The translations under genes were made by a program, and so were the position numbers. A stretch of 64,000 bases of DNA, taken from assembly GCA_023145965.1 (NCBI GenBank), contig JAGLDC010000035.1:14462-78461 (forward strand), written 5' to 3'. The notes beneath the pieces were generated by a model that ran no database searches, was not told the DNA's origin, and saw nothing but the letters and a program-made list of their open reading frames with translations. Shown in pieces: positions 12,896-37,745 of this stretch (position 1 is its first letter; each line of letters starts with the position of its first letter). The DNA is from a bacterium. Lineage in GTDB: Bacteria; UBP14; UBA6098.

Positions 12896-13907
12896 AATAC
12901 ACAGCTTTAATTTTTCCCTCCTTATTGCATTAATAATTTTCCTGGGCTACCTTGGAGGGTGTGCGCATATACAAGTCGAAAGCCCCGCTGCTGGTTTCGT
13001 TCGCGAAGGCACCAGTTTATTTAACGCGGATAAAATCGATGAATCGGCTATCCTTTTTCGTAAAGCCTATGCCGCCGATCCATTTTTTGCTCCAGCCTAT
13101 AAAATGCTCGGAAGAGTCTATCTTGCTAAAGGCGATAACTACCGCGCTGAAATGTTCTTTCGAAAATCGCTTGCTCTGGATAGCTCGAACTCCGAAATAT
13201 ATGGCTGGATAGGCGATATTTATTGGGCAGATGGTGATACTGCAGGTGCTTTTGAATACTACCAGAAATGTCCAAAAGAAGACCCTCATTATGCGATCTT
13301 GCACTATAGGCTAGGTGTGAGAGAATATCAGAATGGACATATCGATAAGGCTAGAAACGAGTTTGAAAAAGCTCTAGAATATCCAGAGTTTTGGGGCGGG
13401 CATTTCGGTCTTGGACTTATCTCATTCTCCAATGGCGAATACCAGAATGCAGCAACATATTTCCATGAGGCGGAAAGATCTTGTGCTGAGCCAGAGGTCT
13501 CCTTTTGGCTTGCCAAATCTTATAGGATGCAAGCACGCGATGCCGAAGCGTATTTTTATTTTAAACAGTTTACAAATTCCATTCAGGGCGAATGCTTGCT
13601 TTGCCCCGAGGCCGAGGAATCTGCAAAACAATTGAAGAGCGCTGTAGTTGATTCATCCCTTGAAATAGACACATCTCTTGTTATACCCTTTACAGTCCTC
13701 GAACACGATGTTCTCGAGGTCGGGATCTTCGATCTTGAGGGACGTCTTGTTAAATCTCTTTTTAATGGTTGGATAACAAAAGGAGATTATACTTTGGAGT
13801 GGAACGGCGAAAACTCAAATGGAGAGCTCATGGACAACGGTGTTTATCTTGGATGTGTTGAGCGCAAATTTGATCTCGAACTTAAACCTATTCTTCTCGA
13901 AAAATAA
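12885..13907 (+). CDS. TPR-repeat lipoprotein with a C-terminal Ig-like (FlgD/T9SS-like) beta-sandwich domain
   Basis: Start at internal ATG 12885 (MKTKIHSF...LGYLGGCAH lipobox). The original call overlaps the upstream stop. TPR-like repeats (AYKMLGRVYLAKGDNYRAEMFFRKSLALD). C-terminal GIFDLEGRLVKSLF...GVYLG. Confidence 0.55.
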   Translation: MKTKIHSFNFSLLIALIIFLGYLGGCAHIQVESPAAGFVREGTSLFNADKIDESAILFRKAYAADPFFAPAYKMLGRVYLAKGDNYRAEMFFRKSLALDSSNSEIYGWIGDIYWADGDTAGAFEYYQKCPKEDPHYAILHYRLGVREYQNGHIDKARNEFEKALEYPEFWGGHFGLGLISFSNGEYQNAATYFHEAERSCAEPEVSFWLAKSYRMQARDAEAYFYFKQFTNSIQGECLLCPEAEESAKQLKSAVVDSSLEIDTSLVIPFTVLEHDVLEVGIFDLEGRLVKSLFNGWITKGDYTLEWNGENSNGELMDNGVYLGCVERKFDLELKPILLEK

Positions 13908-16900: not shown

Positions 16901-17650
16901 TCAGATTCTTCGACTGTTACTTTTGCGACTGAAGTCTCTTTAGATTTTCATACAACATCCTCGCCCTTCGAAATATCCGACAGCACAAATTGGCGGTGGC
17001 TCCCCGATAGTGGATGGCTTTTTTCAAGCGAAGGCCCAATTCTAGAATTTCTCGATCTTCCACTTCTCGAGTGCCCTGGAACCTTAGCCATCGAGATAAT
17101 TGGTGAATACCATTTTGATGGCAACAGCGCGGGTGCGCTTATCTTCAAGGGTTTTCCGGGCGATAGTTTTGCATCTTTACCAGATACCATTCCTTCCGGA
17201 AATCCTTTCTTTCCTGGACTGCCCGGTGTTATCGGCACAGGGAATATTGTATCGACTATACTTCCATCAGTTTCTGGTGGAATCTTCACTTTTCAACTTG
17301 CCGCTGCCATTCCTGATAGCGATTTCGCATATTGGCTTATAGACTCCATCTGTTTCTTAACCGAATCGAAGATTACGCAAGCTTTAACACCAAAGGATTT
17401 ATCGATTTCTGTTTTTCCAAATCCCTTTAACGATGCATGTAAAATATGTATCGATAACCTCGATAAACCATCGGTGATAGATATTTTCGACATCTGCGGA
17501 AGACGTGTTTATTCACGAAATCTTACCTCCGAAACCTCATCTTTCGTCTGGGATGGCTGTTCTACAACTCGAAAGTGCCTGCCCTCCGGAGTTTATTTGA
17601 TTAAGTTGGCCGACTCGATTGAGATTGCTAAGATCACTTTACTTCATTAA
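13910..17650 (+). CDS. Large secreted subtilisin-like S8 serine peptidase (1246 aa) with a type-A T9SS sorting domain
   Basis: GTG start. Catalytic triad motifs AILDSGTD, HGTHVSGIVAG and GTSMACPHLAG. The C-terminal sorting domain (FPNPFNDACKICI...GVYLIKLA...ITLLH). Confidence 0.8.
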   Translation: MERFIDKNLFRSAIALLFFLIGSVCALDSYYLSFDPIDLATLRKYENLSFEERKHITVGILRAYSEKAQAEALILLDELTRNGEISDVRPLWICNCIRFSATTSAIDQIESSQLDARLVKSIPKEAMLFNPAKTSEYEASVDSIAWGLEQVGVPTIWRSFGLDGKGTLVAILDSGTDFGNPNLIGSFWENTSEIPLNNIDDDSNGYIDDWRGYDWTEDDPWPYDERGHGTHVSGIVAGRGIMGMATGMAPACKIMPLKVLNYSGTGEEADVWEAIQYAIENGARVMNLSIGWRYSSSPDRSAWRAAVESACEIGVVMCIAGGNEGGTDGAPNNLRTPGDVPRALTVGATDILDERASFSSLGPVAWGEVAPYFDHPYPPGLIKPDIVAPGDSVPSSTLGGGVEYWDGTSMACPHLAGASAIILQLCPDISHDSVKALIETSAFDLGPTGKDSIYGSGRLDLINLFNRLDNIGWLRGNTEPLAQICSTPSQAKIQADSLGHFFIAMKEGTYTITADKFGFSSTTSLVSVVAGDTSFINLPISPGIPNNLQFVVRDFDNGAPIGDAILTFPLWPLDSFYTLSDGRIAISISESDTTTVQINKSGWTTYEFTANEIYPDTMLHTIYLQRALDFELDSGLTHWGISDSIYSDDWEWGTPSTGPSPRSGDRLWATRLDTTYSNSSDSWLSLGQVDLSSDAEAPRLEFFQWFELEASSRACWDGGNIKARIPDSEWNIIEPQGGYPIFIDDYNPITGGQPGFSGEFSGAHWHRVVFSLDAFIGDTVELAAHMGSDNNTVYSGWFIDDVAILPKTLREPIFRSVSTEFTAGEVVISGTLFAVNSEIVEDSLLAHFGGAASGTASMISIGEYFECSIEGPFSSESLFIWLSVVDSEARKAIYPHSAPDSMITVLIDFSEDTTSPIIERWAYWPNRIIGLDSTVFVFIIEDSSPTTSIFTFEQDSIIDSIIIPGSFYDTLLITIPLTSSSALEWHITSRDSFGNIASDSSTVTFATEVSLDFHTTSSPFEISDSTNWRWLPDSGWLFSSEGPILEFLDLPLLECPGTLAIEIIGEYHFDGNSAGALIFKGFPGDSFASLPDTIPSGNPFFPGLPGVIGTGNIVSTILPSVSGGIFTFQLAAAIPDSDFAYWLIDSICFLTESKITQALTPKDLSISVFPNPFNDACKICIDNLDKPSVIDIFDICGRRVYSRNLTSETSSFVWDGCSTTRKCLPSGVYLIKLADSIEIAKITLLH

Positions 17651-22645: not shown

Positions 22646-24199
22646 ATGTTTGTTGACACACACGCACATATAGATTTCGAGGATTTCACCGATGAGCTTG
22701 ATAACGTTATCTCGAGGGCATGGGATGTCGGCGTTAGGACAATAGTGATTCCGTCGATAGAGGCGAAAACAATGCAAAAAGCGGCCTCGATAGCTGAAAG
22801 TTTCCCCCACATATGGTTTGCCGCTGGATGGCATCCAAGTGATGCGGATTCCTTCGATGAAAGCTTGTTTAAGCATTATCTCGGCCATCCAAAATGCATT
22901 GCCATTGGAGAAATAGGCCTTGATTTTTACCGAGAACACACTGAGAAATCGCTACAAATAGAGGTTTTTAGAAAACAACTTGGGATAGCAGCGGATAGAT
23001 CGCTTCCTGTTATAATCCATATTCGTGAGGCTTGGGACGAGGCTCGAAAGATAATTGATGAATTCCCGGAAGTTGTTTGCGATTTTCATGCCTTTTCGGG
23101 CGGGGCCGAGGAGGTTGAGTGGATAGTGCAAAGAAGCGGATATATGGGGCTTGGAGGGCCATTAACCTTCAAGAATTTTAAAAGAAGCGAGACAATCGAA
23201 ACCATCCCTATGGGAAATATCCTCCTTGAAACGGATTGCCCTTTTCTCGCACCACACCCCCATAGAGGAAATCGAAATGAACCGTCATTCATTCCTTTAA
23301 TCGCCGATAAGGTGGCTGAATTCAAATCAGTCGAATTGGACAAGGTCGAAATGGTAACAACTGCAAATCTTAAGCGGTTTTTAGGTATTCCGATGCCGAT
23401 TTCCATTAGCAACAAGAATATTGCAAAAAGATCACTATCTCAGAATTTTTTATGCGATGATAATATTATCAAGAAATTTGTTAGCATCATCAATAAAACA
23501 GATTTAATCATCGAAATTGGAGCTGGCAATGGCGAGATTACTTCATATTTACCCGAGAAATCTCTCAATATCTGGGTAACAGAACCTGATTGGGGGCGCA
23601 TCCCGGCATTAAAAAAGGCTGCGCCGGAAACGATCATTCTTCCAATGAAAGTCCAGAACATCGACCTAAAAGGGCTTTGCTCTTTCGAGGGCAAAAAAGC
23701 GACAATAGTCGGCAACCTTCCATATGCTGATAGTTCTCAAATAATTTTTCAAATTATCGAGCATCGTGATATTATCGATAGGGCTATCATTATGATACAA
23801 AAGGAGTTTGCCGAAAGACTGTGTGCCTGTCCGGGTTCTAAAAAATATGGCATCCCGAGTGTGCTTCTGTCATTATTTTTTGATGTTAATTATCAATTCG
23901 ATGTCTCGCCGCATTGTTTTAAACCTGTGCCAAGGGTTGATTCCTCCGTTATATCAATGGTGCCAAGAAAAGAAACACCTGCCCAAAAAGTTGAATACCA
24001 TTTATTGAAAGACATCATTAAATCTGCATTCTCGCACAGGCGAAAAACCATAGCTAATTCGATGAAATGGGCTTTCGGGCAATATGATCTAATTCCAATC
24101 TTGAAGACCGTAGGAATAAATCCCTCGGACAGAGCGGAAAATATATCGCCAGAGAGTTTCGTAAACTTAGCGATAGCCCTCGGAAAGACAGTGCTCTGA
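22646..24199 (+). CDS. In-frame fusion of TatD-family metal-dependent DNase/hydrolase (N-terminal half) with 16S rRNA (adenine1518/1519-N6)-dimethyltransferase RsmA/KsgA (C-terminal half)
   Basis: N-terminus MFVDTHAHIDF...GEIGLDFY...ETDCPFLAP is TatD. From about residue 255 the sequence MPISISNKNIAKRSLSQNFL...IEIGAGNGEIT...VGNLPY is KsgA. There is no stop between them. The stop overlaps the pgsB start (TGATG). Confidence 0.65.
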   Translation: MFVDTHAHIDFEDFTDELDNVISRAWDVGVRTIVIPSIEAKTMQKAASIAESFPHIWFAAGWHPSDADSFDESLFKHYLGHPKCIAIGEIGLDFYREHTEKSLQIEVFRKQLGIAADRSLPVIIHIREAWDEARKIIDEFPEVVCDFHAFSGGAEEVEWIVQRSGYMGLGGPLTFKNFKRSETIETIPMGNILLETDCPFLAPHPHRGNRNEPSFIPLIADKVAEFKSVELDKVEMVTTANLKRFLGIPMPISISNKNIAKRSLSQNFLCDDNIIKKFVSIINKTDLIIEIGAGNGEITSYLPEKSLNIWVTEPDWGRIPALKKAAPETIILPMKVQNIDLKGLCSFEGKKATIVGNLPYADSSQIIFQIIEHRDIIDRAIIMIQKEFAERLCACPGSKKYGIPSVLLSLFFDVNYQFDVSPHCFKPVPRVDSSVISMVPRKETPAQKVEYHLLKDIIKSAFSHRRKTIANSMKWAFGQYDLIPILKTVGINPSDRAENISPESFVNLAIALGKTVL

Positions 24200-25407
24200 T
24201 GGAATTATTCCTCATTCTGCTTATAATTGCGCTAATCGTCTGGTGGGTTTTGGAATATCGCCGGCATTCTATGAATGTAGATAGAATAAAAATTCGAATC
24301 CATGTCAACGGCACTAGAGGAAAATCCTCTGTAACTAGGCTTATCGCTGGCGCGCTTCGCGAGGGTGGAATTCACACGGTTGCAAAAACTACCGGCACAA
24401 TTCCGAGGCTTATTCTTCCAGATGGCACCGAGGAACCCATAGTGCGTCTCGGCTCGCCAAATATTCACGAACAGGTTGCAATCGTTCGCCGGGCTGTCGA
24501 TCTCGATGCAGAGGCACTTGTTATTGAATGTATGGCGCTACTTCCAGAGTATCAAGAAATATCTGAGCGCAAAATCATTAAAAGCACCATCGATGTCATA
24601 ACCAACGCACGCCCCGATCATCTAGATGTGATGGGACCAACCGGACATGATGTAATCGATGCGCTTTGCGGCACAATCTCGAAGGGGAACATCTGTTTTA
24701 CTTCTGAAAAGGAGCATTTTGACCATATAGAGAAAAATGCCATCGATAACGGAGCGACAATTGTGCAAGCAGTTCCCTCCACTATTGAAAAAACCGATAT
24801 GGCTGGATTTTCATACATCGAACACGAGGAAAATGTTGCATTAGCGCTTAAAGTGGCTGAACATTTGGGGATTTCTCGCGAAACTGCCATTCGAGGAATG
24901 CAAAAAGCGACCCCTGATATCGGCGCATTGACCGTTTATAAAGTTGAATTCTTCGGGAAAGTAGCAATATTCTATAATGCTTTTGCCGCCAACGATCCCG
25001 AATCTACCGGTGCGCTCTGGGTCAAGCTTAAACTCGATACAGACCCAACCTTCCCAACAATTGTGCTAGCGAATAACCGTGCAGACCGTGCAAGCCGAAC
25101 TTCACAGCTTGCAGAAATGTTAGTGGATAAAGTCCATGCTAATTATTATATATTAACAGGAACGAATACTAAGCTTCTCGTCGAGAAGCTCGATCGGCAT
25201 GGTATGAATATGACCGCAGTTTACGATATGGGTGGAGTGGAGGTCGAAGATATATTCGAGCTTTGCATGGAATTGACGCCCACACACAGTTCCATAGTGG
25301 GTGTAGGGAATATTGGTGGTATAGGCAGGGAAATTTTGGCCTATTTCGAGGCAAGAGCTTTGCCTCGTAAAACACACCACCATGACGACAGCGCAAATGG
25401 GGTATAA
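24199..25407 (+). CDS. pgsB: Poly-gamma-glutamate synthase, amide ligase subunit PgsB/CapB
   Basis: N-terminal TM followed by IRIHVNGTRGKSSVTRLIAGAL (Mur-ligase-like P-loop), matching the B. subtilis PgsB N-terminus. Further collinear motifs ECMA, DHLDVMGPT and GVGNIGG. Confidence 0.85.
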   Translation: MELFLILLIIALIVWWVLEYRRHSMNVDRIKIRIHVNGTRGKSSVTRLIAGALREGGIHTVAKTTGTIPRLILPDGTEEPIVRLGSPNIHEQVAIVRRAVDLDAEALVIECMALLPEYQEISERKIIKSTIDVITNARPDHLDVMGPTGHDVIDALCGTISKGNICFTSEKEHFDHIEKNAIDNGATIVQAVPSTIEKTDMAGFSYIEHEENVALALKVAEHLGISRETAIRGMQKATPDIGALTVYKVEFFGKVAIFYNAFAANDPESTGALWVKLKLDTDPTFPTIVLANNRADRASRTSQLAEMLVDKVHANYYILTGTNTKLLVEKLDRHGMNMTAVYDMGGVEVEDIFELCMELTPTHSSIVGVGNIGGIGREILAYFEARALPRKTHHHDDSANGV

Positions 25408-25458
25408 AGAATAAGTTCGTAAGTATAATGCTGTTTTAACCAATTTTCGGAGTTTATT

Positions 25459-25926
25459 ATGCTCTGGTTGTCTGTAGGTCTTGGATTGGTATTATCGCTC
25501 GGCTTCGCCGAATGGTTTGGACTTGCCGCTGGTGGGCTTGTAGTCCCGGGCTATATCGCTCTTTTCTGGAGCGAACCACTTAAAGTGGTGGGAACGGTAA
25601 TTATTGCCATAGCCGCGTTCGGTTCGATAAAAGTAATAAGCCAATACACACTTATTTATGGAAGACGCAAACTGGTTCTAACTGTGCTTATTGCATTTGT
25701 TTATGCTTGGCTTTTCAGGGTTCTTTTACAAGGCGAATACGGATTGTTTCTTAATTCTTTCGACCCCATCGGTTTTATAATTCCCGGCCTTTTAGCCTAC
25801 TGGATGGATAAGCAGGGAGTTATCGATACACTCAGCACTATGGTAATTGCCAGTATTGTCGTCCGGCTAATGCTTATTATTTTTAGAGGAGGTGAGCTTC
25901 TTGAAGTGGCACTCCCGACGAGTTAA
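25459..25926 (+). CDS. pgsC: Poly-gamma-glutamate synthase membrane subunit PgsC/CapC
   Basis: 155-aa polytopic membrane protein. AGGLVVPGYIAL...YGRRK...IIPGLLA is collinear with B. subtilis PgsC. Confidence 0.8.
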   Translation: MLWLSVGLGLVLSLGFAEWFGLAAGGLVVPGYIALFWSEPLKVVGTVIIAIAAFGSIKVISQYTLIYGRRKLVLTVLIAFVYAWLFRVLLQGEYGLFLNSFDPIGFIIPGLLAYWMDKQGVIDTLSTMVIASIVVRLMLIIFRGGELLEVALPTS

Positions 25927-27001
25927 TCTAGGCGCTTTAGTTTTCCTTGCACTCATAGGTATAGCAATCATGGCTATTGTCGAGCTTTCCAAGGTACGTG
26001 TGAAGAAACCATATTTTGAAGAGAAAGTCGAAGCCTCTAATCTCACTCAAATAGCTTTTTTAACGATCAACAATACCGGCGGTGATTGTGTGGTAATTGA
26101 CTCGGTGGTCGATAGGAACGGAACCGGCCTTATCGGTGAGCAGTTCACATTAATTACCACCGATAGAGGAAATTTAACATCTAAATTAACCACAACAAAT
26201 CCCAACTGGGGCGCGGTAGTTGTCGATATGTTACGCGAAGTTGGTGTTGACGCCGGAGATTACGTCGCCGTGGCATACACTGGCTCGATGCCCGCATTAA
26301 ATATCGCTGTCATCACTGCGGTGCAAACTATCGGTGCGATTCCAGTTATTGTTTCCAGTGTTGGAGCCTCTATGTGGGGCGCGAACAACCCAAATTTCGC
26401 ATGGCTCGATATGGAAAATACTCTTTTTGATAAAGGGGTATTCAAGTATAAAAGCATAGCCGCATCTTTGGGTGGAAGAGGCGACATTGGCGGTAATGTC
26501 TCTCCTGAAGGAAGAAGAATTCTCCGCGAAATAATCGAGCGAAACTCGATTCCCTTCATAAACGCGGCGACGCTGGACGAGTCGATAGATAAACGGGTGC
26601 AAATCTATGAAGAGGCCTTGCCTCAAGAAAAAAGATATTCGGCTTATGTAAATGTCGGTGGTGGTTTAGGCTCTATCGGGAGTGGCCAAAACCTCGTTGC
26701 GCTGCGCTCTGGGATCAATATGCGTGTCCCGGTGGGCAATTACTCTCGAAAAGGCGCGATGATTAAATTCGGAGAAAAGGGAATACCGATGATAGTCCTT
26801 TCGGATATTAACAATATAGCCGCTCGATACGGCCTGCCGATTGCACCAGAACCTTTACCGGATATTCCTCATGGAGATGTTTATTCCGAACTAAAATATA
26901 GATTATGGCTTGTGATAGTTGGCTTAGTATTTTATTTGTCATTGGTTTTTGTTATTGTTAGAGTGGATCTGAAAGGTATAATTTTCAGAAGGAAGAGATA
27001 A
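25892..27001 (+). CDS. Membrane-anchored PGA-system protein (PgsAA-like, non-CapA third component as in Fusobacterium-type PGA loci)
   Basis: N-terminal TM. No metallophosphatase (CapA) motifs. Immediately follows pgsB-pgsC. Assignment to the 'poly-gamma-glutamate system protein' family rests on context and recalled family features. The start may be an internal GTG/ATG. Confidence 0.45.
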   Translation: MSFLKWHSRRVNLGALVFLALIGIAIMAIVELSKVRVKKPYFEEKVEASNLTQIAFLTINNTGGDCVVIDSVVDRNGTGLIGEQFTLITTDRGNLTSKLTTTNPNWGAVVVDMLREVGVDAGDYVAVAYTGSMPALNIAVITAVQTIGAIPVIVSSVGASMWGANNPNFAWLDMENTLFDKGVFKYKSIAASLGGRGDIGGNVSPEGRRILREIIERNSIPFINAATLDESIDKRVQIYEEALPQEKRYSAYVNVGGGLGSIGSGQNLVALRSGINMRVPVGNYSRKGAMIKFGEKGIPMIVLSDINNIAARYGLPIAPEPLPDIPHGDVYSELKYRLWLVIVGLVFYLSLVFVIVRVDLKGIIFRRKR

Positions 27002-27075
27002 ACACTCTGTCCGAGTTTTGTTTGACATTTTAGGGTATCGAATATACTTTTCCTTTAAATAAGGTTAAAGCAACT

Positions 27076-28320
27076 ATGAAAAAAATTATTATTCTTTCTG
27101 TTTTATTTGCATCGATAGCTTTCTGTTCGGGAAGTTATGTGCACGTGGGTCAAATTGACTTATTCTCTATCGAGCAGGCCGGAGGAGGTTTTTCTTCGAT
27201 TAAGCGAGCAAACCTGGCCACTCGCGCCATCGAAATGGTGATGGAAAACCCCAATTCCTCGACTGATTCTATTCTTATTGCAAATAATGGCAGCCTTGTT
27301 ACTGTCAATTTTAAACGAACTAGATTATTCACTGTTCATCCCGCTGATACGACCGGAACCGGGCTCACTCAGATGGAACTCGCCGAACGCTGGCGCAAAG
27401 CAACAATCGAGGGCATCGAAACCGAGAGGAAGAGATCCATCTCGGCTGGTAACCTCGCCAAATTTGCTCTCGGAGTGCTTTTCCCATTTCTCGTCATAGT
27501 AATATATATTTTAGTTCAAAAGCTCTATTCATCACTTTGTAAAAGCGCAATCAAGAAAGAAGGAACATTCTTTAAAGGAATTAGCTTCCGTAATGTAGAG
27601 GTTATTCCAGCCAAACTACAGGTCAATATTGTACTTAAGCTATTGGTATTTTTCAAATGGGCATTGCTCACTTTAATCTTCTATGTAATGATATTGGTTT
27701 TCTTCAATCTGTTTCCAGCTACCAAGATCTATACCGAGGCGATACTTGAAACAAGCCTACATTGGCTGAGGAATATCGGCAATCTAATGGCCGATGTCCT
27801 AAAATTTATCGTATTCAGTCTGGTGTTCTATCTAATCGCCCGAGTTCTATGGGGTTTGTCGGACATGACATTCAGACACTATGCCACTTCTCCCACAACA
27901 ATAAAGATACCTCAGGCAGCTTTAGAACCTCTTCGTCGCTTAACCAAGATAATTATTGTATTTATCTTCCTTTTACTGCTATTAGCAGCAATTCCTGGGC
28001 CGGGGAATTATTTCGCGCTTGTTCTTTTTGTGGCACTTTTAATAGTAACTTCCATAGCCGCAATGCCCTTCATTACGAGTGCTATCGCAGGCTTATCGAT
28101 ACTCCTAACCCGACAGATCAAAACCGAGGATAGAGTGGAAGTCGATGGTATAATTGGCCAAGTTAAATCTATCGGTTTACTCTGGACCACAATCGAGATC
28201 GATGAAAATAAAACAGCGATACTAATGAACCACAGTCTCCTTGCTGAAAAAACGATACGCTTTCGAAACGATAAGGTCGAACTATCTGATAATAAAACAC
28301 CCGGGGATTCCGATAAATGA
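27076..28320 (+). CDS. MscS-like mechanosensitive channel family membrane protein with an N-terminal periplasmic domain
   Basis: Signal peptide, about 140-aa periplasmic region, several TM helices. MscS beta-domain signature EDRVEVDGIIGQVKSIGLLWTTIEIDENKTAILMNHSLLAEKTIRFRN. The C-terminal alpha/beta cap appears truncated. Confidence 0.45.
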   Translation: MKKIIILSVLFASIAFCSGSYVHVGQIDLFSIEQAGGGFSSIKRANLATRAIEMVMENPNSSTDSILIANNGSLVTVNFKRTRLFTVHPADTTGTGLTQMELAERWRKATIEGIETERKRSISAGNLAKFALGVLFPFLVIVIYILVQKLYSSLCKSAIKKEGTFFKGISFRNVEVIPAKLQVNIVLKLLVFFKWALLTLIFYVMILVFFNLFPATKIYTEAILETSLHWLRNIGNLMADVLKFIVFSLVFYLIARVLWGLSDMTFRHYATSPTTIKIPQAALEPLRRLTKIIIVFIFLLLLLAAIPGPGNYFALVLFVALLIVTSIAAMPFITSAIAGLSILLTRQIKTEDRVEVDGIIGQVKSIGLLWTTIEIDENKTAILMNHSLLAEKTIRFRNDKVELSDNKTPGDSDK

Positions 28321-30101
28321 AAACAATCGTAATGTCACTCTGCCTTTTGTCTATTGCGGTAGCATTTGGAGCGCCAAATTGGGTTTTCTTTGAGGATAAG
28401 GGTTTTCAGCGCGGAGGTCGCGCTGAAAAGGAAGCAATATCATCGGTGGAAAATCGAGTATCTCAACGAAGTCTTCACCGAAGAGCACTCAGAGGAAATC
28501 CTTTAGATTATGAGGACATTCCGGTTTTTCCAAAATATATCGAACGAATAGAAAATTCAGGGGCTAAAATCCGAGTAATATCGAAATTTCTGAATGCGGT
28601 TAGTGTCGAGGCCGACGAAACTGCACTTTCCATGATTATTGAATTACCATTTGTGGAGCATACCAAACCGGTGGCAAGCTTTCGTAGGGATAGGCCTTTC
28701 GATCTCCATGAGTCTGTCCCATCCTACGGTGATTATGGCACCAGTTGGACACAAAACCGTATGATTGGCGCCGACAGAGCACACTCTTTGGGGCTAACAG
28801 GAGATGGAGTTCTTGTGTGCATCACCGATACGGGATTCAAACTCGATCACCTTGCTTTGGACTCTTCTGAGGTGCTTGGGGCATACGATTTTATTGATGA
28901 TGATAGTATAGTAAGCTTCGAACCGGGCGACCCAAGTCCCTCAGAATCCCATGGAACCATGACATGGTCGGTTATAGGAGGCTACTACCCCGGCGATCTA
29001 ATCGGCACAGCTTATGGTGTGTCTGTTCTCCTCGCGAGAACAGAACACTATACAATGGAATCGCCTGTCGAGGAGGATTATTGGATTGCAGCTGGAGAAT
29101 GGGCGGATAGCGCCGGCGCGGATGTTATCTCAGTGAGCCTCGGGTATTCTGACTGGTACACACCCGATTCCATGACTGGCGATATTGCACCAATCAGCAT
29201 AGTCGCCGATATTCTTGCCGAGCACGGTATTTGCTGCGTGATATGTTCAGGTAACCATGGGAGTGCTGGCGCGACTAGTGTTACTGTTCCGGGCGATGCT
29301 GATTCGGTTATTACCGTTGGAGCAGTTGATATGTATGGAAATCGCTTAAGTTTTTCAGGCCAAGGGCCGACAGCCGATGGTCGAATCAAACCCGAGTTAT
29401 CGGCTCTGGGAATCGGAGTTAAAGCCGCAAGTAGCAGTGGCATATCGGATTTCAGAACAAGCTCCGGCACCAGTGCCTCCACACCTTTAGTAGCCGGACT
29501 CACTGCTCTCATGTTGGAAGCGCGCCCGGAACTCGCGCCGATGGATATTAGGACAGCCCTTATATCCACTGCATCGAACAATGAAACACCGAATAACGAG
29601 ATAGGTTGGGGCATTCCTGATATCATGGCCGCTTTAAGCTATCCTGTTGGCGGTGAAGCCGCAATACCGATTTATACAGGATGGAATCTCGTTAGTATTC
29701 CATTAGCGGACACCATCACCTGTGATGCTGCTTTCCCTGGACACATCGGTGATATATGGCTTTGGGAACCCGATTCCGCCGCTTATATCGAGGCTACAGT
29801 TATCGAACCGGGTAAGGGGTATTTTGTGCTTTATGATTGCGACACGCTTCTTATTATAAACGGCGATACCCCCCTTAACTCTATCGATCTCGAACTCTCG
29901 TCTGGCTGGCACGCAATTGGCGCTGTGGCTAGCACTAACTCGTTGGGGACTATCGCAAGTCGTTCAACAGCGAGTATTCACAATGATTTCTATCTATTTA
30001 GCAAAGACACAGATCAATATAAACAAACAAAGCAATTTCCACCGGGGCATGGCGGATTCCTTCTTGTAACCGTTGGAGGTTCAGTCAGGTTGGCAGAATG
30101 A
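28317..30101 (+). CDS. Secreted subtilisin-like S8 serine peptidase with an N-terminal I9-like propeptide
   Basis: ATGA start/stop overlap with the upstream gene. Catalytic motifs VLVCITDTGF, SHGTMTW and SSGTSASTPLVAG. Signal peptide present. Confidence 0.75.
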   Translation: MKTIVMSLCLLSIAVAFGAPNWVFFEDKGFQRGGRAEKEAISSVENRVSQRSLHRRALRGNPLDYEDIPVFPKYIERIENSGAKIRVISKFLNAVSVEADETALSMIIELPFVEHTKPVASFRRDRPFDLHESVPSYGDYGTSWTQNRMIGADRAHSLGLTGDGVLVCITDTGFKLDHLALDSSEVLGAYDFIDDDSIVSFEPGDPSPSESHGTMTWSVIGGYYPGDLIGTAYGVSVLLARTEHYTMESPVEEDYWIAAGEWADSAGADVISVSLGYSDWYTPDSMTGDIAPISIVADILAEHGICCVICSGNHGSAGATSVTVPGDADSVITVGAVDMYGNRLSFSGQGPTADGRIKPELSALGIGVKAASSSGISDFRTSSGTSASTPLVAGLTALMLEARPELAPMDIRTALISTASNNETPNNEIGWGIPDIMAALSYPVGGEAAIPIYTGWNLVSIPLADTITCDAAFPGHIGDIWLWEPDSAAYIEATVIEPGKGYFVLYDCDTLLIINGDTPLNSIDLELSSGWHAIGAVASTNSLGTIASRSTASIHNDFYLFSKDTDQYKQTKQFPPGHGGFLLVTVGGSVRLAE

Positions 30102-31381
30102 AATTTAGAAGACCATTTATTATAATAGCTGGCGCACTTGCATTATCTTGTAGCGGTGAACCTAAATTATCTGTAGAAGAACCGATTTATACAGCTGGCC
30201 AACTTGCGCCTCGAGAGCGGAAGACCGTCTGGTTTAAACTATCTAACGAAGGCGACAAAGAGCTTGTCATAGAAAATATTCGTTCGCTTTGCGACTGCAT
30301 TGTTGTCGAGCAGGCACCCGAGACAATACAGCCACAGTCAAGCGACAGCCTGAAGGTGGTTTACACTGCGCCGGATAGCGCAGGCCCGGATGAAAGTTAC
30401 CTTATGCTCAGGACCAACTCAGACCCGAAAAACATGAAACTTGGCATCAAATCGACTGTTCTCGAAGTCAAGCTTACTCGCGAGGATAGCTCGATAGTCA
30501 TATTCCCGTTTCAGGTTAGTGGTCTTGCCGATGGGCAGAAGTTTTCGCTTGATATATTTCAATACCTTATCGAACATGTTCCGCCGGGTTACACCGCCAA
30601 AAACCCTAATGAAATGACCAATAAATTCCGTGACGATCCAGCTTTCGAAAAGGAACCGCTCAACGACGTCGCACGCAAATGGTCGAATCTATTGGGCATA
30701 CGCTTTGTTGTTCTCGGTGATGCAAGGCCTTCAGTAACCGGCGAGGGCCTAGACCTCAGCATTATGCTTGTCGATGGCACATTCCGTCTGCCTATTGGTA
30801 AACGAATTACCGGTATCGAGATGGAAAACGCCTTCAAAGCAACCTCGGATACTATCGCTTACATACTGTCAAATCTTGGTGAATTGGAAAAACAGGCGTT
30901 TATTGCAGACCTTCAGAGGAAATGGGCGGAGCAGCGTGCCGCAATGATTGGCAAACCAGCTCCACCGCTGGCCGCTGAAAATATTATTTCAGGAAAAACC
31001 ATAGGAATAGATAATTTTAAAGGAAGCCCGCTTATCATTCAGTTTTTCTCCTCAGATTGCGATCACTGCGAAGAGGAGATGGAATGGCTTAAAGGGCTTA
31101 TCCAGGAGCATTCAGATATCGCGGCACTTGGCGTCTCGGTGGATGTCGGCGAAATCGACTCCGTGAAGAATTTTATCAAGGGCAAAGAACTTAATTATCC
31201 AGTTATACTTCCGACCGAGGAAAACGAGAAACAACTCGACCCCTATTATGGTGGTGCTACGCCGCAAACGGTCATTATTTCGCCCGAGGGCATTGTTGTC
31301 GAGTATTTCATGGGCGCAAATTCCAGAACTTATGCCAAATTTGAGAAACTGCTTATAGGCATGCTTGCCGATAAGCAGTAA
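30098..31381 (+). CDS. Lipoprotein with an N-terminal DUF1573-like domain and a C-terminal TlpA/ResA-like thioredoxin-fold domain (CxxC)
   Basis: Lipobox ALSCS. DUF1573-like KLSNEGDKELVIENIRSLCDCIVVE. Thioredoxin-like GSPLIIQFFSSDCDHCEEEMEWLKGL. ATGA overlap with the upstream subtilase gene. Confidence 0.6.
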   Translation: MKFRRPFIIIAGALALSCSGEPKLSVEEPIYTAGQLAPRERKTVWFKLSNEGDKELVIENIRSLCDCIVVEQAPETIQPQSSDSLKVVYTAPDSAGPDESYLMLRTNSDPKNMKLGIKSTVLEVKLTREDSSIVIFPFQVSGLADGQKFSLDIFQYLIEHVPPGYTAKNPNEMTNKFRDDPAFEKEPLNDVARKWSNLLGIRFVVLGDARPSVTGEGLDLSIMLVDGTFRLPIGKRITGIEMENAFKATSDTIAYILSNLGELEKQAFIADLQRKWAEQRAAMIGKPAPPLAAENIISGKTIGIDNFKGSPLIIQFFSSDCDHCEEEMEWLKGLIQEHSDIAALGVSVDVGEIDSVKNFIKGKELNYPVILPTEENEKQLDPYYGGATPQTVIISPEGIVVEYFMGANSRTYAKFEKLLIGMLADKQ

Positions 31382-31505: not shown

Positions 31506-33818
31506 ATGGGTATTAGGAAAGCTGTTTTTTCTATTCTTGCATTAACGACTTTGCTTTTCGGGGCGGACAAATGCATTCTTTCGGGTTTCGTGCGTTCGGC
31601 GGCTTCGGGTGAGGCTATTGCAGGGGCGAATGTATATATTGAAGGGGAACCTTTTGGCGCGGCAGCAAATATATATGGTTATTATACTATAACCTCGGTG
31701 CCATCGGGTGGGCCACACAACCTTATAATTTCGGCGATTGGTTATGCACCTCAAAAAATCCAAATAATTTGTGAAGGCAAACCTTTACGTAATGATTTTG
31801 AGCTAATGTTGCAAGCTATTAAGGGTAAGGAGATTGTTGTCCAAGCACAGAGGGTTGGTGGGATGAAAGATCCTTATATTGGACATATGCTGATCAAAAG
31901 CGATCTTATTCGTCATGCACCGGTTCTTGCCGAACCTGATCTTTTCCGCACACTTCAGATGTTACCCGGTATAACTTCCATCTCGGATTTCTCAAGTGGG
32001 CTTTATATATGGGGTGGGACGCCGAGTGACAATCTAATACTTCTTGATAACATAGAGGTTTATAATCCGACTCACCTTATGGGCTTTTTCAGCACATTTA
32101 TTGTCGATGCTGTGCGCGAGGCCAACCTCGTCAAAGGTGGTTATCCTGCTAAATGGGGCGGGAGATTAGGTTCTGTTTTAGAGGTAACCAACAAGGATGG
32201 TAACCGAAAAGAATTCCACGGAAACGCGGAATTATCGCTTTTATCCGGCAAGGTATTCCTTGAAGGTCCTATAAAAAACGGAAGTTATGTTATCGCTGGG
32301 CGAAGGACTTGGATCGATGCTGCTACAGCCCTTCTCGAGCGCAACGACATTATGGATGAAAACTTGCCATATTATTTCTACGACCTTCAGGGAAGGTTCA
32401 ATCGTGATCTCGGCAATAGAGATAAACTCTCTTTTAGCTTTTATTGTGGCGATGATGTTTTTGCTATCGAGGATGATGAGGATGAAGCTCAATCTAGCGA
32501 TTCCATGATCTATAGCGAAAATGAAAATGACGATTTCGAGTATCGTTGGGGCAATTTGACATTGAGCACACAGTGGACACACATATTCAGTGAAAAGCTA
32601 TTCAGCCACATGGTTTTAGCAGGAAGCAAGTTTAGAACTAAACTCGATTCCGATGCCGATGATATGGAATTGAACGACCGAATTGGGGACCTAACACTTA
32701 AAGGCGATATGTCCTATGCTTATAATGAAGAGCATTTTTTAAACTTCGGTGGTATGGTTAAATGGCGCGAGGTGAAAAACTATTTTAATGTGCGCGAATT
32801 CGACGACGAGGGCATAGCTACCAGCACATTCGAGATGAACGATTACACTGGAGCTTCATTGCTCGCAGGCTATATTCAAGATGAATATAGCCCGAATATA
32901 CAATGGAAAGTTCAAGGTGGTTTTCGTTTAGAATATGCTACAAACGGTGGTTATTTTACAATTGGGCCAAGGCTTTCGGGGCAAAGGCTTTTAGATGATA
33001 AAACTACGCTAAGAGCAGCTTACGGCCATTATTACCAATATATTCACCTTATTAATCCGCTGGAGGAAATCGGCATAGCTACATTCGATAGTTGGGTGCC
33101 CTGCAATGATGATCTTAAACCAGCGGTTTCAGATCATTTCGTTTTGGGGATGGAAACAGATTATCTTCCGGTTCATATATCGATGAATGCATATTTCAAG
33201 CACATGAACAGACTCATAGAATCGCGCGACGAGGTTATTTTTAACAGCGATGGTGACATCGATGCTCGTTTCCATATCGGCACAGGATGGGCTTCGGGAT
33301 TTGATATTTCTATAGAGGGCAAAATAGGGCAATTCGCTGGTTGGGCGGGTTATGCCCTTGGATTTACCATGCGTAAGATGCCTGGAAAAAATGGCGGTGA
33401 GTTCTATCCGCCAAAATACGACCGACGCCACAGTTTCAAGTTGTATACTGCTTATAAACCATCGGATCGTGTCACACTGGCTGCGTCCTTTAATTATGGA
33501 ACTGGACAGCCTTCTACTGAACCTATCGATTTTGAAGAGGAGGTGTTGGGCGGTTACAAATATTATTGGCCGATTTGGGATGATAATGCTTACCATAATG
33601 GAAGATTACCGGATTATCATAGACTGGATTTGAGTTTAAACTGGGTAGCCTATACCGGCAACTGGAAGCTTATCCCGTATTTCCAGATATTAAATATCTA
33701 CAATAGGAGCAATGTTCTTTTTCGGGAGTGGGATGAGCCTATGTATGACAAGATTGAAGCAGACGATAGCTGTATGCTACCTTTCTTGCCAACCTTTGGT
33801 ATCAGGGCAGAATTTTAA
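31506..33818 (+). CDS. TonB-dependent receptor-like outer-membrane protein with an N-terminal carboxypeptidase-regulatory-like domain
   Basis: Signal peptide. CarbopepD_reg-like GFVRSAASGEAIAGANVYIEG...GYYTITSVPSG. Plug-domain-like segment (LIRHAPVLAEPDLFRTLQMLPGITS...LLDNIEVYNP). C-terminal beta-barrel signature ending in phenylalanine (…IRAEF). Confidence 0.6.
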   Translation: MGIRKAVFSILALTTLLFGADKCILSGFVRSAASGEAIAGANVYIEGEPFGAAANIYGYYTITSVPSGGPHNLIISAIGYAPQKIQIICEGKPLRNDFELMLQAIKGKEIVVQAQRVGGMKDPYIGHMLIKSDLIRHAPVLAEPDLFRTLQMLPGITSISDFSSGLYIWGGTPSDNLILLDNIEVYNPTHLMGFFSTFIVDAVREANLVKGGYPAKWGGRLGSVLEVTNKDGNRKEFHGNAELSLLSGKVFLEGPIKNGSYVIAGRRTWIDAATALLERNDIMDENLPYYFYDLQGRFNRDLGNRDKLSFSFYCGDDVFAIEDDEDEAQSSDSMIYSENENDDFEYRWGNLTLSTQWTHIFSEKLFSHMVLAGSKFRTKLDSDADDMELNDRIGDLTLKGDMSYAYNEEHFLNFGGMVKWREVKNYFNVREFDDEGIATSTFEMNDYTGASLLAGYIQDEYSPNIQWKVQGGFRLEYATNGGYFTIGPRLSGQRLLDDKTTLRAAYGHYYQYIHLINPLEEIGIATFDSWVPCNDDLKPAVSDHFVLGMETDYLPVHISMNAYFKHMNRLIESRDEVIFNSDGDIDARFHIGTGWASGFDISIEGKIGQFAGWAGYALGFTMRKMPGKNGGEFYPPKYDRRHSFKLYTAYKPSDRVTLAASFNYGTGQPSTEPIDFEEEVLGGYKYYWPIWDDNAYHNGRLPDYHRLDLSLNWVAYTGNWKLIPYFQILNIYNRSNVLFREWDEPMYDKIEADDSCMLPFLPTFGIRAEF

Positions 33819-34088: not shown

Positions 34089-37000
34089 ATGAGACGGAAT
34101 TTGTTTATTGGATTGTCTCTATTGTTGTGTATTATTGGGGTGTCGGTTGCCAATTCTCGGTCGCCGCTTTCGGCTGGGAATATGAATTTTGTTTGTCAAG
34201 GAAGAACATATGCTGGTCAAAACACTTTTGAGACCGGCGCTTATGCTTCCGAAGACTTTAATTTCTTCATCAGTTGTCATTTCGATACTGGTGGTGTCGA
34301 TGTTGGTTTTGTTATCGACTCTTCCGGTTCGATGTCTGGAACACTCACTGCGGTCAAAGCGACCATAGGCTCATTTGCTACGGGTTTAGACACTGCGGGT
34401 TATGATGCGCGTTATGGTGGATGTCCTTATGCTGACAGCACTCGTGGCATGTGGGATTTCAATGCGAGCACTCCACATCCTGATTATGAGATGACGAATA
34501 ACATATCCACTTTTCAGACTAGACTTGCGACCTGTGGTGCTTCTGGCGGTGGCGATACACCGGAAGAATACCTCGATGCTCTTGCTGCAGTGATGCGTCA
34601 CTACGACTGGCGGCTTCTTTCGATGAAGATTATCATAGGTTTCACCGATGCTGTTTTCTGCGAGCTTGGCAATTCTTGTTTTGACTGCCGCTCCAATGAG
34701 AACAAGGACGACATTCTCGATGAGCTTATCGATGGTGGTTTCATTTTATTTAACATCACAAAGATACCGCCATACTGGAGTTCTTGTGTTCCAGCCTCTC
34801 CGTATCACTCTGATTGGTATCAACTATCGGCTGACACAACAGGTGGACAATGGTATAATCTTACTACTACACCGTGGACTACTATTTTCTCTGATGTTAT
34901 CACCTTCATTCGCGACTATCAGAGTATCGGTGTTGCGGTTATCAACTCGGGAACAGACACTATTTATGATGTTACAGGCGAGCTTATTGCGAGCGACTGC
35001 TTCGAGGTTATCACCGCTCCGGCGGTCAACCCTGCTATCGCTCCTGGTGACACTGTGATTTTCAATTGGAGACTCGAGCCATTCGATCCTGTTACCTGTC
35101 CGATGGACAGTTCTGAAGAGTTCTGCTTCCTTACTGTTTTTCATGCTACCGATGGCGTCGCTCCAATATCTGACTTTGTTACCGGAGGATGTGTTTTCTT
35201 CGGAGCGGATTGCGGGTGCGATGGAACCAATGCAGAGAAGGAATTCCCTCCCAACCTAGCAATTACTTCCTGTCCTGACCAGCTCGTCCGCTATTCGATG
35301 TCCACGAAGTGCTATCTTGACACTACTTCGTTTATATTTAAAGTTAACTCCGGTTCTGGATGGATAATGATTCCCTGGAACGGCGATGGCATGACCATGC
35401 TTTCAGATACTGGTTTTGTGTGGGCACCAGCCGAGTCACTTTTGTTCTTCGAGCACGGCGACACCACCCTACACGAGCTTTATCAACTAAACGATGTTTC
35501 TGGCCTTGGGCTCCATAGCAGACCTTCCGGCAATTTCGTTGTCGATCTGTTGCCTCCGGTCTATGACACTCCTTATCCTGTCGATGGTGCTCTCATCGGC
35601 GGACCTCCAGCCTATGTTAGGATCAATGTCACCGATGATCTTTCCGGTGTGGATCCGGGCGAAGGCTGGTGGTTATCTGTCAATGATACAGAGGTTCCCA
35701 CAACTGACTCACACCTCACCTTCGATGGCATGATGATCAGCCTCGAGGTTGCGGGTTCGATTACATCGATGTTCCCTCCGGGTGATACCATCGAGATTTG
35801 CGTTGGTGCTCAGGATTCACCGGATCTTTGCGATCCGAATGTTAGCTCAATCTGTTGGAGCTTCATTATCGATTATCTAGACTTCGATTTACCAGAAATG
35901 ATCGTTGAACCGAACGATACATTCTTGGTGCCAATAATCGCTTACAATCCCAATAGATTTGTTCTCCACGATTTCTCGGTTTCCTTTGAGTATAATCCCG
36001 ATATACTTATTTTCACCGGCACAGATAGAACTGGCAGCGCCTTACCGACCTCCTGGATTACCAGCGTGGACACCGCCGCCGGTGTGGCAACAGTTTGGGG
36101 TAGCGGCACTGGAGCGCTAGCCGATGTTGACACACTTATATTCCTTTCTGCCATTGTTAAACCTGAGGCTCCAAGCGCTTCATTCACACCGCTTATTTAC
36201 ACAGAAGATGGCATTGTCCTCGACAGCGGATATATCGGTTACAGGATTATTGATAACGGTTGGGTGCTCGTTGGTTGGTCACCAGAAACTTGGGTTCATG
36301 ATCTAACCTTCGATTCTGATACAAGGCCATTGAATACTATTCTCACTTTTGGTATGCAAAACGCAGCTAGTGCAAGCTATGATCTTGGTATCGATATTCC
36401 TTTCTACCCACCACCTGCCAATAGAACAAATTCTTATTTCCCGATTTCGGACTCTGTTTATCCTCTGGTTACCAAACTCGAGCGAGACCTCAGAGCTCCT
36501 GCGCCACTTCCTGTAGAATGGAAGATAGCAACTGTTGGTGAAGCTGGCATCCTCACTTGGTCAACCGCCGGCCTCCCAGAAGGAGAACTCACGCTTAATG
36601 GCATGATCGAGATGCACCTTCACGATACCTATCATTATGCAGCCAACGAGACTATCACTATTGTCTATGACCGTCCCGAACCGATTATCAACGAGATCAG
36701 CATTGATGTTGGATGGAATCTTGTAGGCTTCCCGTGCATCCCCACTGTCGATGTTGTCCCGAATATTATCCCGGGCGGTTTGTATCATCTTTACGGATAT
36801 AACCCCTTTGACCTTGCCTATTTCTCAACCAATAGAGCCGAAGCCGGTCATGGTTATTGGGTTTATTCCATGGAAGAGGGCACATATAACATGGGCGGAA
36901 TTCCGGTTGCCAGCTATGAAGTTCCTTTGAACACCGGTTGGAACCTGGTTGGTTGCGCAAATGTCTCCAGTGCCACATACACAAGCACGCCAGCCATTTC

Positions 37001-37745
37001 CGGATTGCCCCAATTCTATAATACGACAACTGGTATGTATGAGACCTCCTCGTTTATCGAAGCAGGCATGGGCTACTGGATTCTTGTTACCTCACCGGGA
37101 ACCTTCCAAGTTCCGGGTGCCAGGTCCTTCAAAGCAAACAATCCCGATTGGAGTGCTAATTTCGAGTTTGATGAGAAAATATATACTATCGGCCAGGGCT
37201 CATCCGAGAATAGCCTCGGTATTCCACCGATAACACCCGATGGTGAAACCGTTATCCCTGGCGCATTGATGATGGATGGTTTCAAGATGTGGAGTCTTAT
37301 CTCACCCGATGCTGAGACTTGGACCTTCCACTCAGATGAATCGGGTTGGCTTCTCTGGAATGGCACAGATAATCCGCGTATTGCTGTTACAATACACGGC
37401 AAAAAAACCGTCCTCGAAAATGGTATGCAGTTATTCTTGAGTAAGGGTGATTTCGCAGTGTTCAACAAAGCAGGATCACTTCCAGAGGTTTACGGTGTTA
37501 TGGTCAAACCGAACCCCGCCAATGCGGCGTTTATGGTCACTGTGGATGTTCCTCAGCAGAGTGATGTAACTGTCGGTCTTTACGACATGCTCGGAAAACG
37601 CATCGACCGCATCGCTGACGAGAAACTCACCGCAGGAACACATAGCTTCAATTGGCATAGCAAATCCGAACCCAGTGGCGTGTATTTTGTTCGCGTCAAC
37701 TGGGATGGTGGCGAAGTTGTTCAGAAAGTCGTTTTACTCAAATAA
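34089..37745 (+). CDS. Large secreted von Willebrand factor type A (vWA) domain protein with a type-A T9SS sorting domain
   Basis: Strong RBS AAGGAGG. Signal peptide. MIDAS motif FVIDSSGSMSG. The C-terminal sorting domain (VKPNPANAAFMVTV...SGVYFVRVNW...VVLLK). Internal PDLCDPNVSSICWSFIIDYL motif is shared with the giant adhesin. Confidence 0.7.
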   Translation: MRRNLFIGLSLLLCIIGVSVANSRSPLSAGNMNFVCQGRTYAGQNTFETGAYASEDFNFFISCHFDTGGVDVGFVIDSSGSMSGTLTAVKATIGSFATGLDTAGYDARYGGCPYADSTRGMWDFNASTPHPDYEMTNNISTFQTRLATCGASGGGDTPEEYLDALAAVMRHYDWRLLSMKIIIGFTDAVFCELGNSCFDCRSNENKDDILDELIDGGFILFNITKIPPYWSSCVPASPYHSDWYQLSADTTGGQWYNLTTTPWTTIFSDVITFIRDYQSIGVAVINSGTDTIYDVTGELIASDCFEVITAPAVNPAIAPGDTVIFNWRLEPFDPVTCPMDSSEEFCFLTVFHATDGVAPISDFVTGGCVFFGADCGCDGTNAEKEFPPNLAITSCPDQLVRYSMSTKCYLDTTSFIFKVNSGSGWIMIPWNGDGMTMLSDTGFVWAPAESLLFFEHGDTTLHELYQLNDVSGLGLHSRPSGNFVVDLLPPVYDTPYPVDGALIGGPPAYVRINVTDDLSGVDPGEGWWLSVNDTEVPTTDSHLTFDGMMISLEVAGSITSMFPPGDTIEICVGAQDSPDLCDPNVSSICWSFIIDYLDFDLPEMIVEPNDTFLVPIIAYNPNRFVLHDFSVSFEYNPDILIFTGTDRTGSALPTSWITSVDTAAGVATVWGSGTGALADVDTLIFLSAIVKPEAPSASFTPLIYTEDGIVLDSGYIGYRIIDNGWVLVGWSPETWVHDLTFDSDTRPLNTILTFGMQNAASASYDLGIDIPFYPPPANRTNSYFPISDSVYPLVTKLERDLRAPAPLPVEWKIATVGEAGILTWSTAGLPEGELTLNGMIEMHLHDTYHYAANETITIVYDRPEPIINEISIDVGWNLVGFPCIPTVDVVPNIIPGGLYHLYGYNPFDLAYFSTNRAEAGHGYWVYSMEEGTYNMGGIPVASYEVPLNTGWNLVGCANVSSATYTSTPAISGLPQFYNTTTGMYETSSFIEAGMGYWILVTSPGTFQVPGARSFKANNPDWSANFEFDEKIYTIGQGSSENSLGIPPITPDGETVIPGALMMDGFKMWSLISPDAETWTFHSDESGWLLWNGTDNPRIAVTIHGKKTVLENGMQLFLSKGDFAVFNKAGSLPEVYGVMVKPNPANAAFMVTVDVPQQSDVTVGLYDMLGKRIDRIADEKLTAGTHSFNWHSKSEPSGVYFVRVNWDGGEVVQKVVLLK

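Follow-up and report, generated by a model that had tools for sequence, protein, structure and literature searches.

The window, the whole 64,000-nucleotide stretch of bacterial DNA analysed here, contains a poly-gamma-glutamate (PGA) synthase operon that is followed on the same strand by four genes for envelope proteins. The operon consists of a tatD-ksgA fusion, pgsB, pgsC and a third gene, called pgsX here, that belongs to the family TIGR04332, 'poly-gamma-glutamate system protein'. The four genes behind it, the quartet, encode an MscS-like protein, an S8 subtilase, a DUF1573-thioredoxin lipoprotein and a CarboxypepD_reg/TonB-receptor-like barrel. These two sets of genes are probably independent modules that lie end to end, their adjacency reflecting local genome order and not a dedicated PGA function. 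Domains in the open reading frames (ORFs) were called with the curated cut-offs of Pfam and NCBIfam/TIGRFAM.

All genes of both sets lie on the forward strand. The first of them, at 22646-24199, joins a TatD nuclease (PF01026, 227.8 bits) to an RsmA 16S rRNA dimethyltransferase (PF00398, 151 bits), and both TIGR00010 and TIGR00755 score above their cut-offs. Its stop codon overlaps the start of pgsB, and the sequence reads TGATG at 24197-24201. The ATP-dependent amide ligase subunit of the synthase is encoded by pgsB (24199-25407, 402 residues). It scores 418.6 bits against TIGR04012, which has a cut-off of 222.7, and its residues 5-383 align to positions 3-380 of the 380 in that model. The Mur-ligase middle domain (PF08245, Mur_ligase_M) is found at 28.5 bits against a cut-off of 24. 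Directly 3' of pgsB, after a gap of 51 nucleotides, pgsC (25459-25926, 155 residues) encodes the small integral-membrane subunit, which matches TIGR04011 at 122.5 bits (cut-off 96.45) and PF14102 at 111.6 bits (cut-off 27). The original prediction called pgsB and pgsC unambiguous, and both do pass curated equivalog cut-offs.

The third gene, pgsX (25892-27001, 369 residues), overlaps pgsC by 35 nucleotides when the longest ORFs are read. Its product matches TIGR04332 at 302.5 bits, against a cut-off of 100, over positions 3-307 of 307. The protein is bitopic, with a transmembrane helix at the N-terminus and another at the C-terminus, and between them lies a two-lobed alpha/beta domain that is predicted to face the periplasm. 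The profile libraries give it no Pfam match and no CapA match. Identity with CapA/PgsA is ruled out, as no PGA_cap or metallophosphatase signal appears by sequence or by fold. This agrees with the earlier assignment of the gene to an alternative 'poly-gamma-glutamate system protein'. The name pgsAA that was used for it has to be dropped, being a Bacillus synonym for PgsA/CapA (as in pgsBCAA) and not a name of the TIGR04332 protein. In this operon, pgsX stands in the place of PgsA/CapA.

Genes of this kind are common. A metagenome scan anchored on pgsX yielded 80 loci at 37-71% identity. All 80 keep the triad, and the order is pgsB-pgsC-pgsX wherever enough sequence is available. With the gene-3 product as query, the TIGR04332 family comprises at least 2,973 clusters (90% identity) at E <1e-3 among 8,000 candidates scored. 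These clusters are mostly environmental, and many of the homologues already carry the name 'poly-gamma-glutamate system protein'. Judged by its sequences, the three-gene core is of a known and very widespread Gram-negative (diderm) type, and the pgs part of the locus is a TIGR04332-type PGA synthase operon, made up of common genes, in an uncultured candidate-phylum bacterium. PGA had been described as rarely documented outside Firmicutes and Fusobacteria. This is correct for demonstrated production and incorrect for the genes, as the cluster count and the capBCA genes of Francisella illustrate. A literature search found no publication that mentions TIGR04332, none on the quartet, and none that deals with the pgs genes of Zixibacteria or of related candidate phyla.

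Throughout the window's clade, the pgs transcription unit opens with a conserved gene, the tatD-ksgA fusion. It lies directly 5' of pgsB, with overlapping stop and start codons, in loci L001, L009/L012, L011, L015/L020, L019, L021, L023 and L030. In all clade loci with upstream sequence it is an invariant neighbour of pgsBCX, and it is kept better than anything 3' of pgsX. Three distant loci (L054, L056 and L069) have an rsmE gene a short way upstream of pgsB. The junction between pgsB and pgsC can hold foreign genes, a DUF3800 gene in L001 (7472-8287) and a Fic/DDE-like gene in L011 (8055-9530), and another DUF3800 gene is found between the thioredoxin and barrel genes of the L097 quartet (11517-12404). 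This points to mobility of DUF3800 genes and to the pgsB-pgsC spacer as a hot spot for insertions.

The quartet starts with an MscS-like inner-membrane protein (27076-28320, 414 residues). It consists of a signal peptide, a periplasmic N-domain of about 100 residues, transmembrane helices and an MscS beta-domain, the last matched by PF00924 at residues 334-391 (38.4 bits against 20.2). In a Foldseek comparison the pore-helix and beta-domain region, about 155 residues, matches only MscS, YnaI and MscK, with E of about 4e-6. The NCBIfam MscS model gives a score of 26.7 against a cut-off of 400. The protein ends about 20 residues past the beta-domain and has no C-terminal alpha/beta domain (PF21082), unlike the distant hits P0008-P0011, in which that domain is present. 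The family is very small. An exhaustive HMMER scan of 1.84 billion representative proteins returned four representatives at 39% identity or above and about eight short relatives at 24-29%.

The second gene of the quartet (28317-30101, 594 residues) encodes a secreted S8 subtilase (PF00082, 147.5 bits against 21.8). It has an N-terminal propeptide-like region and a C-terminal 'GWNLV' domain of about 150 residues, and the residues D171, H212, N313 and S386 are invariant in 11 orthologues. The C-terminal extension (29637-30098) shows homology (E of 5e-11) with tandem repeats in a 1,218-residue protein encoded at 34089-37745, where they occupy residues ~870-1008. That protein has a VWA domain and the tail of a type IX secretion system (T9SS) cargo. 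Extension and repeats share the motif 'GWNLV...GxGYW/F', for which there is no Pfam model.

The third gene (30098-31381, 427 residues) encodes a lipoprotein in which a DUF1573 Ig-like domain is followed by a middle domain and then by a ResA/TlpA-like thioredoxin domain. The matches are PF07610 at 59.7 bits, PF00578 (AhpC-TSA) at 53 bits and Redoxin at 31.6 bits. The lipobox LSCSG, a C-D-C motif (C65/C67) and the CxxC motif (C321/C324) are invariant in 15 sequences; the C-D-C motif sits inside the DUF1573 domain. The middle domain, at residues ~130-270, is conserved, carries the motif DSSxVxxPFQxxG and has no family match. For the thioredoxin domain, the best sequence matches in the PDB are to ResA (2.6e-13), and its score of 58 against the ResA subfamily cut-off of 170 marks it as a relative and not an equivalog. 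The fusion of DUF1573 to a thioredoxin is found in 16 clusters only. The Asp-His-Ser triad of the S8 protease and the CxxC of the thioredoxin protein are intact, and the proteins look functional. The domains described earlier for these three proteins, namely an MscS-like protein with a periplasmic domain, an S8 protease with a propeptide and a lipoprotein with a CxxC thioredoxin domain, are matched.

The fourth gene (31506-33818) encodes the outer-membrane barrel. CarboxypepD_reg (PF13715) scores 54.9 bits and the TonB-dependent-receptor-like domain (PF00593) 54.3 bits (cut-off 27), and a Plug domain falls just under its cut-off, at 22.1 bits against 23.9. Homologues in other quartets are ~770 residues long. 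The barrel gene lies directly 3' of the DUF1573-thioredoxin gene in L001, L003, L004, L005, L006, L009/L012 and L101/102, and in L097 it follows the inserted DUF3800 gene. It is missing from the quartet only in L099. The original prediction described a tight operon block, and the overlaps are real here; this fourth gene, which accompanies the other three in nearly every relative, was missed.

The quartet genes remain together, with gaps of 3-16 nucleotides or overlaps, in 9 of the 10 lineages in which the end of the group is visible. Because the four genes stay together, and because the MscS-like and DUF1573-thioredoxin families are tiny and co-extensive, the quartet can be treated as a unit. 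It is an uncharacterised envelope cluster that occurs in a single uncultured lineage only, a clade that goes under the label UBP14 or Zixibacteria. The one relative with a name is 'bacterium UBP14_UBA6098', an unclassified candidate-phylum bacterium, and another carries the label Zixibacteria.

Within the window, the MscS-like and S8 genes overlap by ATGA at 28317-28320, and the S8 and lipoprotein genes by ATGA at 30098-30101. The original prediction listed six ORFs in this region, and their positions, domains and TGATG and ATGA overlaps are all as it described them. The boundary between the two modules is the spacer of 74 nucleotides between pgsX and the MscS-like gene (27002-27075, forward strand). 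This spacer contains no terminator-like hairpin and no stable RNA fold (z = 0.56). Because gaps are short, genes overlap and a terminator is absent, it is plausible that the quartet is co-transcribed with pgs in the window. Across the window's closest relatives, described below as subclade I, the spacer measures 26-80 nucleotides and is poorly conserved in sequence. A TTGACA hexamer in it is common to the window and L006, and may leave room for an internal promoter ahead of the quartet.

Whether the modules belong together can be judged from their arrangement in relatives. The MscS-like and DUF1573-thioredoxin proteins have few homologues, whose genomic neighbourhoods were compared, and identity matrices divided the window's clade into two subclades. 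Subclade I comprises the window, L001 (UBA6098), L005, L006, L017 and L099; the pgsX proteins of its five pgs-carrying members are 68-80% identical to one another. In subclade II, the mutual identity of pgsX is 77-86%.

Four lineages of subclade I, the window, L001, L005 and L006, have the quartet 3' of pgsX on the same strand, with a gap of 26-80 nucleotides. In L017, also of subclade I (pgsX 69%), pgsX is followed by a RecD2 helicase gene and not by the quartet. In a single lineage of subclade II (L009/L012/L013), the quartet and tatD/ksgA-pgsBCX stand head-to-head on opposite strands, the quartet lying upstream. Here too the quartet has its 5' end towards the pgs genes, and both linked forms would follow from an ancestral adjacency if tatD-pgsBCX was inverted once.

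Other relatives carry the modules apart. In assembly GCA_964606695.1, the quartet is on contig 1 (L003) and the pgs operon on contig 8 (L011). There, the quartet stands behind a cluster of Fur, peroxiredoxin, desulfoferrodoxin, ferritin and rubrerythrin genes, and the pgs operon is followed by a class-III aminotransferase gene. In L015/L020 and L030, the 10 kb to each side of pgs contain no quartet, and the 770-kb contig of L015 gave no DUF1573-thioredoxin match in a search that was not exhaustive. Counted apart from the lineages that carry the quartet, four pgs loci of the clade have none nearby. Likewise, quartets occur with no pgs upstream in L007 (10 kb seen) and L097 (6.9 kb seen), and also in L004 and L101, whose visible upstream sequence is limited to ~1.5 and ~1.2 kb. 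The aminotransferase gene is a consistent downstream neighbour of pgs in subclade II (L011:11378-12718, L012:11514-12851, L015:11533-12873, L020 and L030), after a gap of 277-521 nucleotides. Beyond it lie genes for a 132-residue protein, an adenylate-cyclase/AAA/TPR protein of ~985 residues and a Sortilin-like protein. This conserved neighbourhood differs from that of the window.

Split contigs, opposite strands, lone pgs operons and lone quartets, all among close relatives, thus show that the modules are separable. That the modules came apart later, several times and in such close relatives, speaks against linkage being under strong selection. A dedicated accessory would be expected to keep its linkage to pgsBCX in relatives, and this linkage is not kept. 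The original prediction had named unlinking of the trio from pgsBC in related genomes as an outcome that would refute it. This outcome is largely what is observed, and the 'unprecedented accessory trio' becomes a four-gene block that is placed elsewhere or unlinked in close relatives.

A two-module model of the locus can be outlined. In module 1, homology suggests that PgsB would be a Mur-ligase-like ATP-dependent amide ligase on the cytoplasmic face of the inner membrane. PgsB and PgsC together would add glutamate through gamma-amide bonds at that membrane, as happens in Bacillus, in which PGA can be made by pgsBC alone (PMC6029982). The pgsX product, with its helix at each end, would be the periplasm-facing partner of the synthase. 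Module 2, the quartet, would be a clade-specific cassette that spans the inner membrane, the periplasm and the outer membrane. Its most likely role, drawn purely from domain content, would be the processing of extracytoplasmic proteins or peptides combined with TonB-type uptake, with proteolysis, disulfide reduction and import as its steps. Transcription of module 1 probably reads through into module 2 in the window's subclade, where the quartet comes immediately after pgsX.

Loci more distant from the window show a different arrangement. At least 2.3 kb of sequence beyond pgsX is available for 35 distant loci (L041-L096), and 28 of them have two co-directional genes there. The product of the '+1' gene (alignment A3) is 276-340 residues long, has an apparent internal two-fold repeat and gives no Pfam or NCBIfam match. 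The product of the '+2' gene (alignment A4) is a small outer-membrane beta-barrel of 320-510 residues, and 2 of 23 such barrels carry a CarboxypepD_reg domain. Examples are L066 (7000-7830 and 7827-8822) and L081 (11136-12038 and 12035-13168). The pair is a candidate for a dedicated periplasm and outer-membrane export arm of diderm PGA systems. An hmmsearch found no '+1' or '+2' homologues in the window or in the loci of its clade, and the quartet barrel shows no homology to the '+2' barrels.

Several observations weigh against treating the two modules as independent. They are adjacent in five of the ~10 quartet lineages that can be assessed, in two orientations, which is above the expectation for random placement. 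No terminator separates them in the window. The clade is without the '+1/+2' pair, while module 2 supplies an outer-membrane barrel. In an unrelated lineage (L034/L036, pgsX 48% identical), an S8 protease gene of the same subfamily starts 8 nucleotides after pgsX. The L034 enzyme (11083-12981; L036:2648-4546) is 37% identical to the window's S8 protease and collinear with it from residue 1 through the catalytic domain. The L034/L036 enzyme has a weak T9SS tail, and its gene is followed by genes for a CxxCxxCC protein and a Na+/H+ exchanger. No MscS-like, thioredoxin or barrel gene lies beside it.

The rest of the window offers a background for the protease. T9SS tails (Por_Secre_tail or CHU_C) are found at 7747-10326, 34089-37745, 46233-52106 and 56495-58462; the T9SS-bearing context that had been described is thus borne out by cargo tails on four ORFs. 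The first belongs to an M1 peptidase (T9SS tail 37.8 bits) and the last to an S15 peptidase, whose tail match of 26.3 bits is just below the Pfam cut-off of 27. A second, very large S8 protease, of 1,246 residues, is encoded at 13910-17650. Secreted peptidases seem to be a major investment of this organism, which makes an S8 protease beside pgs less significant. GGT/CapD, NlpC/P60 (PgdS) and CapA/PGA_cap domains are absent from the window's ORFs of at least 200 residues, and the absence of CapD and PgdS had been noted before.

One alternative concerns the product of module 1. It is possible, though on balance unlikely, that pgsBCX makes no classical PGA capsule or slime, and instead a different or short gamma-glutamyl product or an envelope modification; the matter of PGA anchoring and processing would then fall away. 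The operon lies in a housekeeping rRNA-methyltransferase neighbourhood, as might suit such a product. A similar suspicion exists for capBCA of Francisella, in which the gene listed as 'capA' bears the product name of gene 3 (PMC5362203). That locus is needed for virulence; capB and capC are not required for the capsule, and the function of the locus is listed as unknown (PMC4688374). However, the window's PgsB and PgsC match at equivalog level models that were built on true PGA synthases. In addition, Fusobacterium nucleatum, which is Gram-negative, makes PGA, though possibly from a locus of another type than TIGR04332.

Another alternative would make the quartet a module against oxidative or envelope stress, with the thioredoxin lipoprotein reducing the periplasm and the protease clearing damaged proteins. 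The ResA/TlpA-like thioredoxin domain with its invariant CxxC would suit such a task, and the quartets of both L003 and L004 follow the cluster from Fur to rubrerythrin. Yet these two loci are one related pair (S8 proteins 78% identical) and count as one event, with a gap of 135-342 nucleotides between the rubrerythrin gene and the quartet. Other contexts differ, such as a Peptidase_S15 gene in L097 and pgs in subclade I. A stress function of this kind is accordingly given a low probability.

A third alternative returns to PGA and sees the quartet as a true accessory, a periplasmic and outer-membrane arm that replaces the pair of repeat protein and outer-membrane barrel. The barrel would be the exit and the MscS-like protein a valve for glutamate or counter-ions; the task of the S8 protease would be to trim the polymer, to release it or to mature a carrier protein. 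Such a role would account for the tight co-directional linkage in four lineages, for an adjacency that survives inversion in a fifth, for the independent occurrence of an S8 gene after pgsX in L034/L036, and for a clade that does without the pair seen in 28 of 35 distant loci. The CarboxypepD_reg domain shared with a few '+2' barrels (2 of 23) points the same way, and the one genome in which both modules can be placed, GCA_964606695.1, has both.

Against such an accessory, at least four lineages closely related to the linked ones have the modules unlinked or separated by over 10 kb. The barrel resembles the TonB-dependent importers and is not homologous to the '+2' barrels, and pgsX belongs to a far broader family than the quartet does. 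The bonds cut by S8 enzymes are alpha-peptide bonds, and no subtilase is known to act on gamma-glutamyl links. The proposal that subtilase or redox chemistry acts on PGA is not supported, and a true accessory role is judged improbable. Weaker still, and very doubtful, is the fuller version in which the clade lost or never had the repeat-protein/outer-membrane-barrel pair and the quartet's barrel, lipoprotein and S8 protease move, tether or size the polymer, with the MscS-like protein as a valve.

If the quartet were a PGA arm, a diderm envelope would be handling a gamma-glutamyl polymer in a new manner, one that depends on a protease and on redox chemistry. As two modules lying end to end, the promised new anchoring or processing of PGA reduces to an ordinary pgsB-pgsC-TIGR04332 locus that abuts a lineage-specific envelope cassette. 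What the comparison does bring out is that diderm PGA loci have at least two architectures, the common one of which also includes a small outer-membrane barrel and a periplasmic repeat protein that lacks annotation. These two proteins are good candidates for the outer-membrane export step. The window's clade has the architecture without this pair.

The locus can be compared with several known systems. The PgsBCA(E)/CapBCA(E) systems of Bacillus resemble it in their equivalog-level PgsB and PgsC and in the order of B, C and a third membrane protein. They differ in that the third gene of the window is not PgsA/CapA and has no CapD/GGT or PgdS nearby. Moreover, the window's host is diderm, and its operon begins with the tatD-ksgA fusion. 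TIGR04332-type Gram-negative loci, such as capBCA of Francisella, share the three-gene core and the NCBIfam family of gene 3. Most distant members of this type (28 of 35) add the repeat-protein and outer-membrane-barrel genes, whereas the window's clade does without them.

For the quartet, the comparisons concern single proteins. Members of the MscS family, such as E. coli MscS, YnaI and MscK and the minimal MscS of T. cruzi, share the pore-helix and beta-domain region of the window's protein, and an N-terminal periplasmic extension also occurs in the larger members. In contrast, canonical MscS has the cytoplasmic alpha/beta vestibule domain (PF21082), which the window's protein is without. 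The ResA/TlpA thiol-disulfide reductases share the thioredoxin fold and the CxxC motif, and ResA of B. subtilis is the closest solved relative. Unlike these reductases, the window's thioredoxin domain is fused behind DUF1573 and a middle domain on a lipoprotein, and its gene stands outside any cytochrome-c maturation context.

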